A stretch of DNA of 64,000 nt. Source: Escherichia coli. GTDB lineage: Bacteria; Pseudomonadota; Gammaproteobacteria; Enterobacterales; Enterobacteriaceae. The stretch lies in the NCBI RefSeq assembly GCF_003991155.1, contig NZ_CP031293.1; one strand, 5' to 3'. Position 1 is the first letter of the stretch; every line of letters begins with the position of its first letter. The notes below the pieces were generated by a model. That model saw only the letters and a program-made list of their open reading frames with translations, did no database searches and was not told where the DNA came from. Both the position numbers and the translations under genes were made by a program. Below are positions 45,571-53,017 of this stretch, one piece after another.

Positions 45571-46095
45571 TTGTCATCCCTCCTCAGGGACGTAATAAGT
45601 TGATCCATCAATTATCAATGCATAGAAAACATATTATGTTTCGCGTTTACGATTATGCGGCGTTATAGAGGAATGGTTCAATTATTCTTTCCTCTAAGTC
45701 CGATTGCGGACATATATAAAGCACGTGAACACACACAAAGAAAGAAATAACAAAAACACAATATTTCAATACGTTAATGAAAGCGTTAATTTTAAAATAT
45801 AGACCATGAAAATACAAAACACACAAAACAGACAAATAATGTATCAATAAGCAATGAACTTTAAGTCATTCACTTTTTGAAAACGTCACCAAATCTCCAA
45901 AAACAATAATCTATAGCTATAAATAAAAATTAAAAATATTTTCAATGAATATAAATTTATTGCTATTTCTATTACAAAGATGTCCTGACCTCTCATTCAT
46001 TCTCTTCTTGTCAACATCGCGACAACTTTCGTAAAACATCCCCACCCTGCTTCAGGTATACTATGCCCCTCGATTCCACAAACATCAGGCAGACC

Positions 46096-49561: not shown

Positions 49562-50524
49562 TTATTGCACGAAGCGCGAGGTCACGTACTGGCTGTAATC
49601 ATTCGCCACGGCAGGGACTTTGCCCTGATCTTTCAAAAACTGCGCGGTGTCGATGATCGCTTTGTTCACCGATCCGGTCAGTTCTGCCGTTTGCTGCTGC
49701 GGCGTCAGATAGGTATTCCCCTTCACCAGCCCCGGAACGTCACCTTCAGGCACGCCGCTTAACCGCGCCAGTTTGCTGATGTTTTCCGGCTGTTTCAGCC
49801 ACGCGTCTGGGTTAGCAATGTACGGTTGCTGAGCATCGATGGCGCTTTTAGCGAACGCTTTCACGACCTCAGGATGTTTCTCGGCAAAATCTTTGCGCAC
49901 TACCCAGACATCCAGCGTCGGCGCACCCCACTGCCCGACCTGTTCAGAATCGGTCAGCACCTTGCCGTCTTTTTCCAGGGCGTTAACCGCCGGTGCCCAG
50001 ACATAAGCACCATCAATGTCTCCCCGCTGCCATGCAGCGATAATCGCGGGCGGCTGCAGGTTCACAATCTCCACTTGCCCGGGTTTAATACCCCAGTGTT
50101 TCAGCGCCGCCAGCAGGCTGTAGTGGGTGGTGGAGATAAACGGTACGGCGATGCGCTTGCCAATCAGATCTTCCGGTTTGCTGATAGTTTTCTTCACCAC
50201 CAGCGCTTCGGAGTTACCCAGTTTTGACGCCAGCAAGAAGACTTCAATCGGCACCTGTTGGCTGGCTGCAACCGCTAACGGGCTGGAACCGAGGTTACCG
50301 ATTTGGACATCGCCTGAAGCCAGCGCCCGCACGATGCTGGCTCCGCTGTCAAACTTACGCCAGTCCACGGTTGCTCCGCTTTCTTTAGCAAAGGTGTTGT
50401 CGGCCTGAGCCACTTTCGCCGGTTCGGCTGAGGTTTGATAGGCCACGGTGACGTTCACCGCCTGTGCCTGAAAAGCGATGAATGCCAGTGCGGCAAGAAG
50501 TGTGTTACGCGATGAAATTGCCAT
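49562..50524 (-). CDS. tauA: Taurine ABC transporter periplasmic binding protein
   Basis: Track ORF 49562..50581; the recognised start is MAISSRNTLLAALAFIAFQAQAVNVTVAYQTSAEPAKV... (ATG at 50524, 320 aa). Confidence 0.93.
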   Translation of the reverse strand: MAISSRNTLLAALAFIAFQAQAVNVTVAYQTSAEPAKVAQADNTFAKESGATVDWRKFDSGASIVRALASGDVQIGNLGSSPLAVAASQQVPIEVFLLASKLGNSEALVVKKTISKPEDLIGKRIAVPFISTTHYSLLAALKHWGIKPGQVEIVNLQPPAIIAAWQRGDIDGAYVWAPAVNALEKDGKVLTDSEQVGQWGAPTLDVWVVRKDFAEKHPEVVKAFAKSAIDAQQPYIANPDAWLKQPENISKLARLSGVPEGDVPGLVKGNTYLTPQQQTAELTGSVNKAIIDTAQFLKDQGKVPAVANDYSQYVTSRFVQ

Positions 50525-51139
50525 GATTGTCTGCTCCCCTGTCTTGTTATGGGAGCAGTATTCAGGAATAAAAACATTCATTAAAAGAATTAGTCGTTAT
50601 CGCACAGATGATTTTATTCTTAGCAAAAAAACGGCAAAGGAAAGATTAAATATGCAATGACTCCGTTCTAACAATTGGGAAAATTACTACACTTCATTTT
50701 AGTGATGCATAAACAACCACATTACGAGATTTATTACTTCATTATTTCTATCAATATCAATACATATAATAAAACTATTATATTCGCATTATATATATCA
50801 CTGTATCATTCTCAATCACTCGCATATTACATTCACATAATGTATATAAACAATACTTGTTCACAGAACATATTTTTTAAATGCAATTAATTGACAAACT
50901 AAATCACATCTAAATACAATGTATAAAACAAAATAACTATACATACCAAACACACAAACACTTAACATATGAATTGCATAAAAACATTAACCAGTCGCCC
51001 CCCCGGATCTGAAAGCCCTGGCTTTTCAATTATTAGCAACATTTAACACTTATAAATTAGCATCTGGCTGCGCCAGAGATTACGTCTCTGAGTGCATCGT
51101 TGTGCTTGTAGTATAATAAATAAAATGGAGTGTCATTAA

Positions 51140-51811
51140 GTGGATAAGGTTTTAGATTCAGCCCTCCTTTCTTCGGCAAATAAAAGAAAGGGTATCCTTG
51201 CTATTGGCGCACATCCTGACGATATAGAATTAGGCTGTGGCGCATCGCTTGCTCGTCTTGCGCAAAAAGGAATTTATATCGCAGCCGTGGTGATGACTAC
51301 CGGCAACTCTGGCACAGATGGAATAATCGATCGCCATGAAGAATCGCGCAACGCCCTAAAGATATTAGGGTGCCACCAAACTATTCATCTTAATTTTGCT
51401 GACACCCGCGCTCATTTACAGCTCAATGATATGATTTCCGCCCTGGAAGACATCATTAAAAATCAAATTCCGTCTGATGTAGAAATCATTCGTGTATACA
51501 CCATGCATGATGCTGACCGCCATCAGGATCATCTTGCAGTCTATCAAGCCTCAATGGTTGCCTGCCGAACTATTCCACAAATTCTCGGCTACGAAACCCC
51601 AAGTACCTGGCTTTCATTTATGCCTCAGGTTTTTGAATCCGTTAAAGAAGAATATTTCACAGTCAAACTTGCTGCATTAAAAAAACATAAAAGCCAGGAA
51701 CGACGCGATTATATGCGTCATGATCGCCTGCGTGCAGTTGCACAATTTCGCGGGCAACAGGTCAATAGCGATCTGGGTGAAGGCTTTGTAATTCATAAAA
51801 TGATTCTTTGA
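51140..51811 (+). CDS. yaiS: PIG-L/LmbE-family deacetylase YaiS
   Basis: GTG at 51140 preceded by GGAG; MDKVLDSALLSSANKRKGILAIGAHPDDIELGCGASLARLAQKG... shows the PIG-L AHPDDxE motif. Confidence 0.88.
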   Translation: MDKVLDSALLSSANKRKGILAIGAHPDDIELGCGASLARLAQKGIYIAAVVMTTGNSGTDGIIDRHEESRNALKILGCHQTIHLNFADTRAHLQLNDMISALEDIIKNQIPSDVEIIRVYTMHDADRHQDHLAVYQASMVACRTIPQILGYETPSTWLSFMPQVFESVKEEYFTVKLAALKKHKSQERRDYMRHDRLRAVAQFRGQQVNSDLGEGFVIHKMIL

Positions 51812-51820
51812 GCAAATTGC

Positions 51821-53017
51821 ATGAAAACCTGGATATTTATCTGTATGGCCGTAGCAATATTGCTATGGTTCCTGAGTACGTTAAGGCGTAAGCCCAGCCA
51901 AAAAAAAGGCTGTATTGACGCCATTATACCTGCGTATAACGAAGGCCCGTGTCTGGCGCAGTCACTGGATAATCTGCTGCGTAACCCTTATTTTTGCCGG
52001 GTAATTTGCGTTAACGACGGCTCCACGGACAATACCGAAGCGGTCATGGCGGAAGTCAAACGCAAATGGGGCGACCGCTTTATTGCCGTCACGCAAAAAA
52101 ATACCGGTAAAGGTGGTGCGCTGATGAATGGCCTCAATTACGCCACCTGCGACCAGGTTTTTTTAAGTGATGCCGACACCTATGTTCCGCCCGATCAAGA
52201 CGGAATGGGCTATATGCTGGCAGAAATAGAGCGCGGTGCTGATGCCGTAGGCGGCATTCCCTCTACTGCGTTGAAAGGCGCGGGTCTGTTACCGCACATC
52301 CGCGCGACCGTAAAGTTGCCGATGATTGTTATGAAGCGCACGCTACAGCAGCTCCTGGGCGGCGCACCGTTTATTATCAGCGGTGCCTGCGGGATGTTCC
52401 GTACTGATGTATTGCGTAAGTTCGGTTTCTCTGATCGTACTAAAGTCGAAGACCTTGATCTCACCTGGACATTGGTGGCAAACGGCTATCGTATTCGGCA
52501 GGCGAATCGCTGCATCGTATACCCACAGGAATGCAACAGCCCGCGTGAGGAATGGCGTCGCTGGCGGCGTTGGATTGTGGGCTACGCGGTCTGTATGCGC
52601 CTGCATAAAAGACTTTTATTTAGCCGCTTCGGTATCTTCAGTATATTTCCTATGCTGTTGGTTGTGCTTTATGGCGTTGGGATTTATCTCACTACCTGGT
52701 TTAATGAATTCATCACCACCGGGCCGCATAGTGTGGTGTTGGCAATGTTTCCGCTTATCTGGGTCGGCGTAGTTTGTGTTATTGGTGCTTTTAGCGCCTG
52801 GTTTCATCGTTGCTGGTTGTTGGTGCCTTTAGCGCCGCTTTCCGTTGTGTATGTATTATTAGCTTATGCCATCTGGATTATTTATGGACTTATTGCCTTT
52901 TTTACTGGACGCGAACCTCAGCGCGACAAACCCACCCGCTATTCCGCACTGGTGGAAGCGTCAACCGCTTATTCCCAACCTTCTGTCACAGGAACTGAAA
53001 AACTTTCTGAAGCTTAA
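51821..53017 (+). CDS. yaiP: Family-2 glycosyltransferase with C-terminal membrane domain, YaiP
   Basis: 398 aa; N-terminal GT2 fold (IPAYNEG...VICVNDGSTDNT...DAD); transmembrane segments at the N- and C-terminal ends. Confidence 0.85.
   Translation: MKTWIFICMAVAILLWFLSTLRRKPSQKKGCIDAIIPAYNEGPCLAQSLDNLLRNPYFCRVICVNDGSTDNTEAVMAEVKRKWGDRFIAVTQKNTGKGGALMNGLNYATCDQVFLSDADTYVPPDQDGMGYMLAEIERGADAVGGIPSTALKGAGLLPHIRATVKLPMIVMKRTLQQLLGGAPFIISGACGMFRTDVLRKFGFSDRTKVEDLDLTWTLVANGYRIRQANRCIVYPQECNSPREEWRRWRRWIVGYAVCMRLHKRLLFSRFGIFSIFPMLLVVLYGVGIYLTTWFNEFITTGPHSVVLAMFPLIWVGVVCVIGAFSAWFHRCWLLVPLAPLSVVYVLLAYAIWIIYGLIAFFTGREPQRDKPTRYSALVEASTAYSQPSVTGTEKLSEA

Follow-up and report, generated by a model that had tools for sequence, protein, structure and literature searches.

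The 64,000-nucleotide stretch of Escherichia coli DNA analysed here (the window) contains tauA on the minus strand and yaiS on the plus strand, which therefore form a divergent pair. The annotated start codon of tauA is the ATG at 50524, in RefSeq as well as in K-12, and that of yaiS is the GTG at 51140. The whole spacer between the two genes (50525..51139) comprises 615 bp with a GC content of 30.7%. The initial annotation had described a divergent, AT-rich spacer of about 560 bp beginning at 50582. The spacer is indeed long, AT-rich and divergent, whereas its length and left border had to be revised: because tauA starts at 50524, the spacer measures 615 bp and begins at 50525. The border at 50582 follows an in-frame upstream ATG, and the published transcription start of tauA (50550 in the window) falls within the coding sequence that this border assumes.

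The spacer is the longest intergenic gap in the surrounding 50 kb of annotation (approximately 50 genes), the runner-up being the hemB-ehaB gap of 525 bp, and it contains the lowest-GC 300-bp stretch of the 64 kb, which begins at 50691 (23.3% GC). It was thus rightly regarded as unusually long and AT-rich. The same annotation had reported that every ORF in this region is shorter than 60 codons. Two such ORFs were found, a 71-codon ORF with a TTG start at 50675-50890 on the plus strand, and a 60-codon ORF at 50478-50660 that overlaps the left border; both are almost certainly noncoding. The 71-codon ORF spans a 9-bp gap that is present in the second of the two E. coli allele families compared below. 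In addition, a small ORF of 25 codons (50969-51046), located downstream of the promoter P+ described below, was considered and rejected: a frameshift disrupts it in the second allele family, and its changes in K-12 are mostly amino-acid replacements. No gene is annotated within the spacer in K-12, small-RNA genes included.

The spacer consists of three parts: the tauA promoter (50525-50650), a core (approximately 50651-50990), and P+, which is an exception inside the core. The GC content of the core is 24.5% over 50661-50990 versus 50.8% in the window, TpA steps occur at 13.9 per 100 bp versus 4.7 in the window, and its plus strand contains 61 C versus 20 G. The two longest G-free runs of the window, 50729-50785 and 50922-50970, both lie in the spacer.

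For the tauA side, Cappable-seq detected a single start on the strand of the spacer that faces tauA. It is located at 384430 of U00096.2, 26 nt before the tauA ATG, and the interval 383338-384430 is otherwise free of reported starts on this strand (PMC4782308 supplement). This start corresponds to 50550 and defines a 26-nt 5' UTR (50525..50550, minus strand), which carries the Shine-Dalgarno sequence GGGGAG at 50539..50534 and is identical across all E. coli copies examined. The promoter (50551..50650, minus strand) has the -10 hexamer AATACT at 50562..50557. The sequences upstream of tauA were aligned for E. coli (both types), an E. fergusonii-like contig, Enterobacter, Citrobacter, Raoultella, Klebsiella, and Kluyvera, and three motif blocks were found to be kept across six genera: the -10 AATACT; the block around the -35, CTAATTCTTTTAAT (50593..50580, minus strand); and an upstream block, TCTTTCCTTTGCCGTTTTTTTGCTAAGAAT, at -95 to -66 from the start (50645..50616, minus strand). 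The start site itself lies in CATAACAA, which does not vary among the six genera. No conservation was seen beyond about -100 in the six-genus alignment. Between the E. coli allele families, the promoter block diverges by 3-4.5%, compared to 13.5% at the four-fold degenerate sites of tauA. Between the conserved blocks, the non-critical positions of yaiS-type E. coli show strong differences from those of the ancestral type, with a higher AT content.

The upstream block is likely to be a Cbl/CysB activator site; we take it to be the Cbl site, in view of its conservation and of the Cbl and CysB footprints that van der Ploeg et al. 1997 reportedly mapped on this promoter. The region resembles the Cbl/CysB promoters (tauABCD, ssuEADCB) in its weak -10, its poor -35 matches, and its conserved upstream activator block, and, as is characteristic of this promoter type, its core and activator elements are conserved and transcription begins a short distance before tauA. 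It differs in that the tauABCD promoter here takes up only one fifth of the spacer. A tauABCD sulfate-starvation promoter had been assigned to the spacer, and the start at -26 together with the three conserved blocks supports this assignment; the promoter is, however, compact and fills only ~126 bp beside tauA (50525-50650).

The tauA start site lies inside an inverted repeat, CTGCTCCC-N12-GGGAGCAG. In IS10 and IS50, a fold-back of this kind protects against outside transcription. The likeness is that only RNA reading through from upstream has both arms, which would hide the tauA Shine-Dalgarno; the predicted accessibility of the latter falls from 0.51 to 0.12 in the E. coli read-through RNA. 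The effect here, however, is marginal relative to shuffles, since the hairpin exceeds only 96% of the shuffled-upstream controls (4% in E. coli), and it is not kept in relatives: in the E. fergusonii-like and Citrobacter sequences, it is either missing or runs in the opposite direction. The fold-back hairpin is accordingly not claimed.

For the core, most of the sequence corresponds to a published promoter island. The tauA-yaiS spacer is listed as entry 383994_309, yaiS(-)/tauA(+), among 78 E. coli promoter islands (PMC3661553 Table 1), and the island maps from K-12 U00096.2 to 50678..50986 of the window, an AT-rich, G-poor, H-NS-bound stretch. In the H-NS column, the entry carries the letter 'A', which denotes all of the compiled ChIP studies (Grainger, Kahramanoglou, Oshima), and its genes were called foreign by three predictors (PMC3661553). 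The spacer also holds a SELEX peak of the RpoD holoenzyme, which carries an 'HNS' flag and names both of the near-consensus promoters recovered here (PMC3946193), and an RpoS SELEX peak was reported within the same spacer (PMC5493296). In spite of these polymerase-binding peaks, the only start on the tauA-facing strand is that of tauA, and the low-depth start-site data of Kim 2012 report no yaiS start inside the spacer. Neither yaiS nor tauA appears in the SMRT-Cappable-seq and 3'-end mapping supplements, which cover the yaiS-facing strand only in part. The suggestion that the region may hold a nucleoid-protein silencing region was therefore correct and had already been published: the spacer is an ordinary and known H-NS-bound promoter island beside the tauA promoter.

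A simple scan, which is our own and not the authors' PlatProm, gave 4.9 promoter-like sites per kb in the spacer versus 0.84 in the window, and 40.7 versus 8.1 -10-like hexamers per kb. The island extends over at least 300 bp, is one of the 78 on the published list, and has horizontally acquired neighbours. However, neither the promoter-like nor the -10-like density exceeds that of composition-matched shuffles (4.2 +/- 2.1 promoter-like sites), and the 'island' therefore follows from AT-richness. The spacer resembles the promoter islands of Shavkunov, Panyukov, and Ozoline in being AT-rich, in its dense promoter-like sites, in its reported RNA polymerase and H-NS binding, in its foreign-gene neighbours, and apparently in yielding little productive transcription, but differs in that base composition fully accounts for its site density.

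The composition is also that of an H-NS region, with a GC content well below the genome average and many TpA steps; the high-affinity 10-bp H-NS motif TCGATAAATT has one match at up to two mismatches in the spacer, which is not above shuffles. As in H-NS xenogeneic silencing, low-GC, TpA-rich DNA with reported H-NS occupancy lies at the border of a sporadic cluster, and the genes beside the spacer appear to be silent under standard conditions. In contrast to that model, the silenced stretch abuts a core-genome, activator-dependent promoter, that of tauA, whose own start remains in use.

Only two promoter sites in the 64 kb match the consensus at 11 of 12 positions, and both are in the tauA-yaiS spacer. 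Since only 0.5% of the composition-matched shuffles contain at least two such sites, this pair is not due to composition. The yaiS-facing site, P+, consists of TTGACA at 50891-50896, an 18-nt spacer, and TACAAT at 50915-50920, lies in a conserved block (50870..50945, plus strand), and has a predicted start at ~50927, which corresponds to 384053 in K-12 U00096.2 and 384829 in U00096.3. P+ is the probable promoter of the yaiS operon, with a predicted leader of ~213 nt. The tauA-facing site (50788..50815, minus strand; TTGAGA-16-TATAAT) is a near-consensus sigma-70 promoter-like site with a start predicted at ~50781. Its -10 reads TACAAT in K-12 and has decayed to TGCAAT in the second allele family; in the E. 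fergusonii-like copy, the site could not be aligned. It appears to be silent in vivo.

Downstream of P+, the putative transcript would begin with a G-free, CA-rich stretch of 49 nt (50922..50970, plus strand). This is followed by a variable, less AT-rich segment (50976..51069, plus strand), which contains a C7 tract and a strain-specific hairpin, GAAAGCC-CT-GGCTTTTC, and by a yaiS-proximal block (51070..51139, plus strand), which is conserved within E. coli and lies ahead of the yaiS GTG. The elements of this block (51074-51130, plus strand) are CAGAGA-N5-TCTCTG at 51074-51090, TATAAT at 51112-51117, and the Shine-Dalgarno sequence GGAG at 51127-51130. The true yaiS promoter could be not P+ but the proximal TATAAT, which is kept within E. 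coli. No usable -35 was seen, on reading the sequence, at 16-18 nt from it, and it is changed to CATAAC in the E. fergusonii-like copy. In addition, yaiS is placed among the sigma-54 promoters in RegulonDB, as quoted in PMC3118216. With a GG-N10-GC core resembling TGGCACG-N4-TTGCW as the consensus, scanning both strands of the spacer from this strain and from K-12 revealed neither a GG-N10-GC nor a match at 9 or more of 12 positions, and a sigma-54 promoter for yaiS was rejected.

The conservation of these segments was compared in three lineages, namely the two E. coli allele families and the E. fergusonii-like copy. At four-fold degenerate sites, the allele families differ by 25% in yaiS and 13.5% in tauA. 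The core-left segment (50661-50780) and the variable segment (50976-51069) diverge by 23-33%, near the neutral value of yaiS; for the variable segment the range is 23-26%, and it differs by 10.5% even from K-12. In contrast, the P+ block (50880-50975) diverges by only 5-6% versus ~25% neutral. Against the E. fergusonii-like copy, 19% of the P+ block differs, whereas the neighbouring segments differ by 47-68%, and the two hexamers and the 18-nt spacing are exactly kept. The yaiS-proximal block shows 4-9% divergence between the allele families and 53% against the E. fergusonii-like copy. Judged from these alignments, P+ (50891-50920) is under selection amid DNA that otherwise drifts neutrally, and the spacer core (~50651-50990), P+ excepted, seems to evolve at a roughly neutral rate. 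A recombination mosaic could mimic such an alternation of conserved and diverged blocks among three lineages. As P+ is apparently maintained by purifying selection, the spacer also differs from the promoter islands in that its promoters are not uniformly 'excess' ones.

The initial annotation had further noted CA-rich repeats similar to a region upstream of yaiT. The spacer contains a single exact copy of the motif ACACAAACA. When one mismatch was tolerated, 19 matches were found in the whole window versus 17.8 expected, and a repeat search returned only 11-nt two-copy families at chance level. The several copies above composition that characterise a repeat family are thus missing, and what had been described as CA-rich repeats is one exact motif copy plus a local base-composition bias, the excess of C over G on the strand being real. 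The similarity to the other region holds only for a single match. The two longest A/C-only runs of the window, 50945-50961 and 45814-45830, are 17 nt each, lie one in each of the tauA-yaiS and hemB-ehaB spacers, and align over 16 nt with 94% identity (E = 0.011 in a tiny search space). The sharing of 7- and 8-mers between the two AT-rich regions exceeds composition-matched controls only marginally (p ~0.05), and homology of the two spacers was rejected, nothing being found apart from the 16-nt match. The run at 50945-50961, which lies within the G-free stretch downstream of P+, is kept in both E. coli allele families but not in the E. fergusonii-like copy, in which 37% of the columns differ.

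A CAAACACACAAAC-like CA motif might, in principle, be a site for a regulator shared by the tauA-yaiS and hemB-ehaB (yaiT) spacers, as the location of the two longest runs in exactly these spacers, their 94% identity, the marginal k-mer enrichment, and the retention of the run in both E. coli families would suggest. We consider this highly improbable, since the window shows no enrichment of the motif, each spacer has one exact copy, the run is lost in the E. fergusonii-like copy, and such runs are likely given the strong excess of A over T and of C over G in both regions.

With regard to the gene neighbourhood, the closest YaiS outside E. coli among 100,044 species representatives is that of Citrobacter sp. 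FP75 (81%), followed by Stenotrophomonas (48%) and then by proteins at no more than 39%. Citrobacter FP75 has the same yaiS operon beside a different gene. Its upstream region is AT-rich but non-homologous; a homology of the E. coli and FP75 upstream regions was rejected, no similarity being detected apart from the start-codon area. In Enterobacter, Citrobacter, and Raoultella, the position opposite tauA is occupied by a response regulator and a MASE1 kinase, and this two-component system is also the neighbour of tauA in 1077 E. coli genomes. By gene order, the ancestral neighbour of tauA is evidently the two-component system, and yaiS-yaiP-acetyltransferase-yaiO is evidently a horizontally acquired, sporadic, lower-GC cluster of the polysaccharide type. 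The locus is a mosaic, with four-fold divergence of 3% in yaiP, 25% in yaiS, and 11-13% in tauAB, and the tauA junction exists in three alternative states within E. coli.

The anatomy and composition of the spacer, the tauA start, the binding of H-NS and RNA polymerase, the conservation pattern, and the history of the neighbourhood are all taken from the observations above or from the literature. The reading that we prefer, to which we assign a probability of about 0.8, is that the spacer is a composite of two regulatory regions joined by horizontal transfer, with P+ silenced by H-NS. Two unrelated regulatory regions would have been brought together through horizontal gene transfer. On the tauA side, 126 bp would constitute a complete sulfate-starvation promoter that starts 26 nt before the ATG. 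On the yaiS side, the other ~490 bp would belong with the yaiS-yaiP-acetyltransferase-yaiO cluster, which in most E. coli occupies the site of the ancestral two-component system of the related genera. The AT- and TpA-rich composition of the core alone would generate many promoter-like hexamers and a good platform for H-NS. H-NS is bound to this core in the published ChIP data and RNA polymerase binds it in vitro by SELEX, yet the start-site maps show almost no productive transcription, which would correspond to the promoter-island or xenogeneic-silencing state. P+ would be the real promoter of the yaiS operon, held off by H-NS in the laboratory, and its leader of ~213 nt would be C-rich, G-poor, and unstructured in the first 100 nt. 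We infer that P+ drives yaiS and that H-NS is the agent that silences P+.

Alternatively, everything beyond the tauA promoter may be functionless junction DNA, with incidental H-NS binding and with the conservation of P+ arising from mosaicism or chance. The near-neutral rate of most of the core, the promoter-like density at the composition expectation, the restriction of the comparison to three lineages, and the clear mosaicism of the locus are all in keeping with such an explanation. It is nevertheless distinctly unlikely, because the P+ hexamers and the 18-nt spacing are exact where the flanks differ by 47-68% with many indels, because two 11/12 promoters arise in so few of the composition-matched shuffles, and because the spacer was selected in vitro by RNA polymerase holoenzyme (PMC3946193). 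Another alternative would be that the product of P+ is an unannotated small RNA, or a brief leader terminating inside the spacer, and not the yaiS mRNA. P+ is near-consensus and strongly conserved, the conservation spans the promoter and the first 20-50 transcribed nt and then falls, and in this strain the hairpin followed by TTTTCAATTATT lies ~85-105 nt downstream. The features of a small-RNA gene, namely a promoter, a defined 3' end, and a transcript, are represented by the candidate promoter P+ only: no Rfam match was found in the spacer at E up to 10, no terminator-like site was found by scan, the folding energy is unremarkable (z = -1.42 for the 219-nt region and +0.19), and no matching RNA ends are present in the published transcript-end data sets, in which the yaiS-facing strand is not fully covered. 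The hairpin GAAAGCC-CT-GGCTTTTC (~51009-51025) was rejected as a small-RNA 3' end or intrinsic terminator, as neither K-12 nor the second allele family has kept its arms. K-12 has no small-RNA annotation here, and yaiS and tauA are missing from the 3'-end supplements. The unannotated small RNA proposed in the initial annotation is thus not borne out, and we regard a small RNA driven by P+ as very unlikely.

The composition of the P+ leader raises another reading, which extends the composite explanation without excluding it: the C-rich, G-poor first 100 nt may be a Rho loading site that ends transcripts escaping H-NS before they reach yaiS. In three lineages whose sequences differ greatly, the C/G ratio of the leader is 2.8-4.0 over +1 to +100 and ~0.9 after that, and the leader length is constant at 212-213 nt. 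The 49-nt G-free run is predicted to be fully unpaired, as are the first 32 nt of the leader, and, as stated in a preprint, many H-NS-silenced genes are activated on Rho inhibition. However, this evidence concerns composition only; the excess of C over G and of A over T runs upstream of the predicted start through the whole core and is also present in the hemB-ehaB spacer, so that it may be unrelated to the P+ transcript. Rho loading seems unlikely to us. It is rather unlikely that P+ and its ~213-nt leader form a two-layer switch for the surface-polysaccharide cluster, in which H-NS would block initiation and Rho would terminate transcription, with H-NS perhaps also tuning tauA. If such a switch were real, expression of the yaiS cluster would need an anti-silencing signal, and the neighbouring H-NS filament could tune the response of the tauA promoter to sulfur starvation.

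With the composite reading, the region needs no new annotation, as no small RNA, repeat family, or new element is called for, and the junction would be a textbook-style case of acquired DNA parked beside a core operon. The present analysis adds a cleaner map of the spacer, in which a short promoter serves tauA, one strong island promoter appears to be selected, and the rest appears to be drifting. This map can be used in studies of yaiS-yaiO expression and in the choice of tauA promoter fragments as sulfur-starvation reporters.

The tauA-yaiS divergent spacer extends from 50525 to 51139, because the RefSeq and K-12 annotations place the tauA start at an ATG at 50524 (- strand) and the yaiS start at a GTG at 51140 (+ strand). 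Its length of 615 bp is equal to that of the K-12 spacer, to which the window is opposite in map orientation, and strain 2016C-3878 shows 100% identity to the window over the query. The initial annotation, which had placed the spacer at 50582-51139 (about 560 bp), was correct for the right end but not for the left end: position 50582 derives from an in-frame ATG upstream of the annotated tauA start, and the published transcription start falls within the supposed tauA coding stretch. Its sequence description was largely right. The spacer is the longest intergenic gap among about 50 annotated neighbour genes and has a GC content of 30.7% (24.5% in the core, 50661-50990), compared to 50.8% for the window, and the 300-bp stretch with the lowest GC content in the whole 64 kb begins at 50691. 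The claim that no ORF of at least 60 codons exists was mechanically wrong, since an ORF scan identified a 71-codon ORF with a TTG start (50675-50890), which spans a 9-bp gap of the second E. coli allele family, and a 60-codon ORF that crosses the spacer's left border. The K-12 annotation contains no gene within the spacer.

The spacer is entry 383994_309 (yaiS(-)/tauA(+)) in the catalogue of 78 E. coli "promoter islands" by Panyukov and Ozoline, in which it is scored as H-NS-bound in all of the ChIP studies compiled and its associated genes are foreign according to three methods (PMC3661553). In window coordinates, the island corresponds to 50678-50986. Thus, the silencing region proposed in the initial annotation was right and had already been published. 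Shimada et al. observed a SELEX peak of the RpoD holoenzyme in the spacer, flagged HNS, and named the sites TTGACA-18-TACAAT, directed to yaiS, and TTGAGA-16-TACAAT, directed to tauA (PMC3946193); an RpoS peak was observed in the same spacer in a later study (PMC5493296). Our consensus scan recovered exactly both SELEX-named sites, at 50891..50920 (+; TTGACA-N18-TACAAT, referred to as P+, with a predicted start at about 50927) and at 50815..50788 (-; TTGAGA-16-TATAAT).

Promoter-like sites were about six times denser in the spacer than in the window (4.9 vs 0.84 per kb), as were -10-like hexamers at 40.7 vs 8.1 per kb. Shuffling the spacer at matched composition reproduced both densities, indicating that the promoter-like density is a by-product of AT-richness. 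Sites matching 11 of 12 consensus positions differ in this respect: just two were found in the 64 kb, both in the spacer, and two or more occurred in only 0.5% of the shuffles. The frequency of TpA steps was three times the window average, and the published 10-bp high-affinity H-NS motif was not enriched in the spacer.

The proposed CA-rich repeats were not supported: ACACAAACA is present as a single exact copy in the spacer, and its one-mismatch matches in the window were not commoner than expected (19 vs 17.8). The strand bias is genuine, with 61 C vs 20 G on the + strand of the core, and the two longest G-free runs of the window are both in the spacer. The two longest A/C-only runs of the window (17 nt each) are at 50945-50961 and, in the hemB-ehaB(yaiT) spacer, at 45814-45830; they align over 16 nt with 94% identity, and the k-mers common to the two spacers were marginal overall (p ~0.05). 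Another long AT-rich gap is this hemB-ehaB(yaiT) spacer (45571-46095; 525 bp, 31% GC, core 25% GC). It contains several A/C-only runs, its + strand is likewise biased (A>T and C>G), and it is missing from the published promoter-island list (PMC3661553).

On the tauA-facing strand, Cappable-seq detected a single start in the spacer, at U00096.2 position 384430 (PMC4782308 supplement), and no start was reported for the TTGAGA-16-TATAAT site. The detected start corresponds to window 50550, 26 nt before the tauA ATG, and therefore the -10 hexamer is AATACT at 50562..50557. The tauA upstream regions of both E. coli types, the E. fergusonii-like contig, Enterobacter, Citrobacter, Raoultella, Klebsiella, and Kluyvera were aligned, and exhibited three conserved blocks: the -10 and start region (AATACTGC...CATAACAA), -43 to -30 (TTAATTCCTTTATC), and -95 to -66 (CTAnCCnTTGCCGnTTTTTTTCTAAAAAC). 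No conservation was observed in this alignment beyond about -100, and therefore the working tauA promoter is located at about 50525-50650. The -95 to -66 block fits the Cbl footprint, which van der Ploeg et al. in 1997 reportedly placed at about -112 to -68. The tauABCD promoter anticipated in the initial annotation is thus real and already in the literature. The tauA start site falls within a perfect 8-bp inverted repeat, CTGCTCCC-N12-GGGAGCAG (50532-50559, - strand), in which the tauA Shine-Dalgarno sequence forms the second arm; both arms would be present only in RNA begun upstream. The predicted masking by this repeat was marginal compared to controls and is not kept across genera.

The yaiS-type spacers fall into two sharply separated allele families: 3261 genomes share at least 95% identity with the window, 1039 share 80-90%, and hardly any lie between these ranges. 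The four-fold degenerate sites differ between the families by 25% in yaiS, 13.5% in tauA, 11% in tauB, and 3% in yaiP. By this measure, the segments 50661-50780 (30-33% divergence) and 50976-51069 (23-26%) look neutral. Constraint is indicated by these comparisons for the tauA promoter, with 3-4.5% divergence, for the region surrounding P+ (50880-50975), with 5-6%, and for the 70 bp next to yaiS, with 4-9%. The E. fergusonii-like copy is far more distant: columns of the flanking spacer differ at a rate of 47-68%, vs only 19% in the P+ block (50870-50945), and the TTGACA, the 18-nt spacing, and the TACAAT of P+ are all exact. This copy does not retain the tauA-facing site, the CA run, or the proximal TATAAT. 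In all three lineages, P+ and the yaiS GTG are 212-213 nt apart (50927-51139 here, with equivalents in the compared loci L004 and L090), despite differences in about half of the aligned columns and several insertions and deletions. In the three lineages, the C/G ratio of this leader is 2.8-4.0 over the first 100 nt and about 0.9 over the remainder. We infer that P+ is the yaiS operon's own promoter, held off by H-NS; going by its composition, which is C-rich and G-poor, the leader could also serve as a Rho loading site.

A possible operator or leader hairpin is the inverted repeat CAGAGA-TTACG-TCTCTG (51074-51090, +), which precedes the proximal yaiS TATAAT by about 25-40 bp. It is conserved within E. 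coli, where CAGAGG in the second family would still pair (G-U in RNA), and is not retained by the E. fergusonii-like copy.

The yaiS and yaiP products are a PIG-L-family deacetylase and a family-2 glycosyltransferase, respectively, and an acetyltransferase and then the outer-membrane barrel protein YaiO are encoded downstream. Among 100,044 species (one genome each), the closest YaiS outside E. coli was that of Citrobacter sp. FP75 (81%), followed by Stenotrophomonas (48%), with all others at 39% or less. In Citrobacter FP75, the same operon follows a cytochrome c peroxidase gene, and the region upstream of it is AT-rich and non-homologous. Opposite tauA, Enterobacter, Citrobacter, and Raoultella carry a response regulator with a MASE1 sensor kinase; this arrangement was also found in 1077 E. 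coli genomes, O157:H7 and O145:H28 among them, and looks ancestral. The yaiS arrangement, present in 4301 E. coli genomes and one E. fergusonii-like contig, is derived. Between the tauA ATG and the -10, the two E. coli types have the same sequence; further upstream, they share only the conserved promoter blocks.

Most probably, the spacer joins a compact, activator-dependent tauABCD promoter to AT-rich DNA that is reported to bind H-NS and lies upstream of a polysaccharide-type operon acquired by horizontal transfer. The greater part of this AT-rich DNA appears to drift neutrally, and its numerous promoter-like sites are a composition effect; the one near-consensus promoter facing yaiS, P+, is the exception. 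An unannotated small RNA, as had also been suggested, was not supported: an Rfam search of the spacer gave no match up to E = 10, a terminator scan yielded no terminator-like site, and the two candidate transcripts folded no better than shuffles (z = -1.42 and +0.19). Kim et al. (2012) assigned yaiS only one start, with two reads, inside tauA, and both yaiS and tauA are absent from the SMRT-Cappable-seq and 3'-end mapping supplements. RegulonDB, as quoted in a paper, lists yaiS among the sigma-54-dependent promoters (PMC3118216); this candidate was rejected, as 50525-51160 contains no GG-N10-GC core on either strand in this strain or K-12.

Three E. coli junction states (50525-53017 and the compared loci L003, L004, and L087-L089) are present in 3261, 1039, and 1077 genomes, the first two being the deeply diverged yaiS-type allele families and the last a two-component-system/uhpC island. 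Between the yaiS-type families, divergence is highest at the spacer and in yaiS (25% at four-fold sites) and falls to 3% in yaiP, pointing to a segment imported long ago or to a polymorphism of long standing. In strain JNEC-KY203 (locus L005), an IS1 element within the AT-rich core joins tauA to ehaB, with a breakpoint equivalent to window ~50906, indicating that an IS1-mediated rearrangement used the spacer. The yaiS gene of this strain is an intact 223-codon ORF (51140-51811, +), 95% identical to a full-length annotated copy, and that of K-12 has a nonsense codon at position 186 (KKHKS* vs KKHKSQ in this strain). RefSeq labels this strain's yaiS a pseudogene "missing C-terminus" despite the intact ORF, which looks like an annotation artefact linked to a small ykiC-like gene on the opposite strand.
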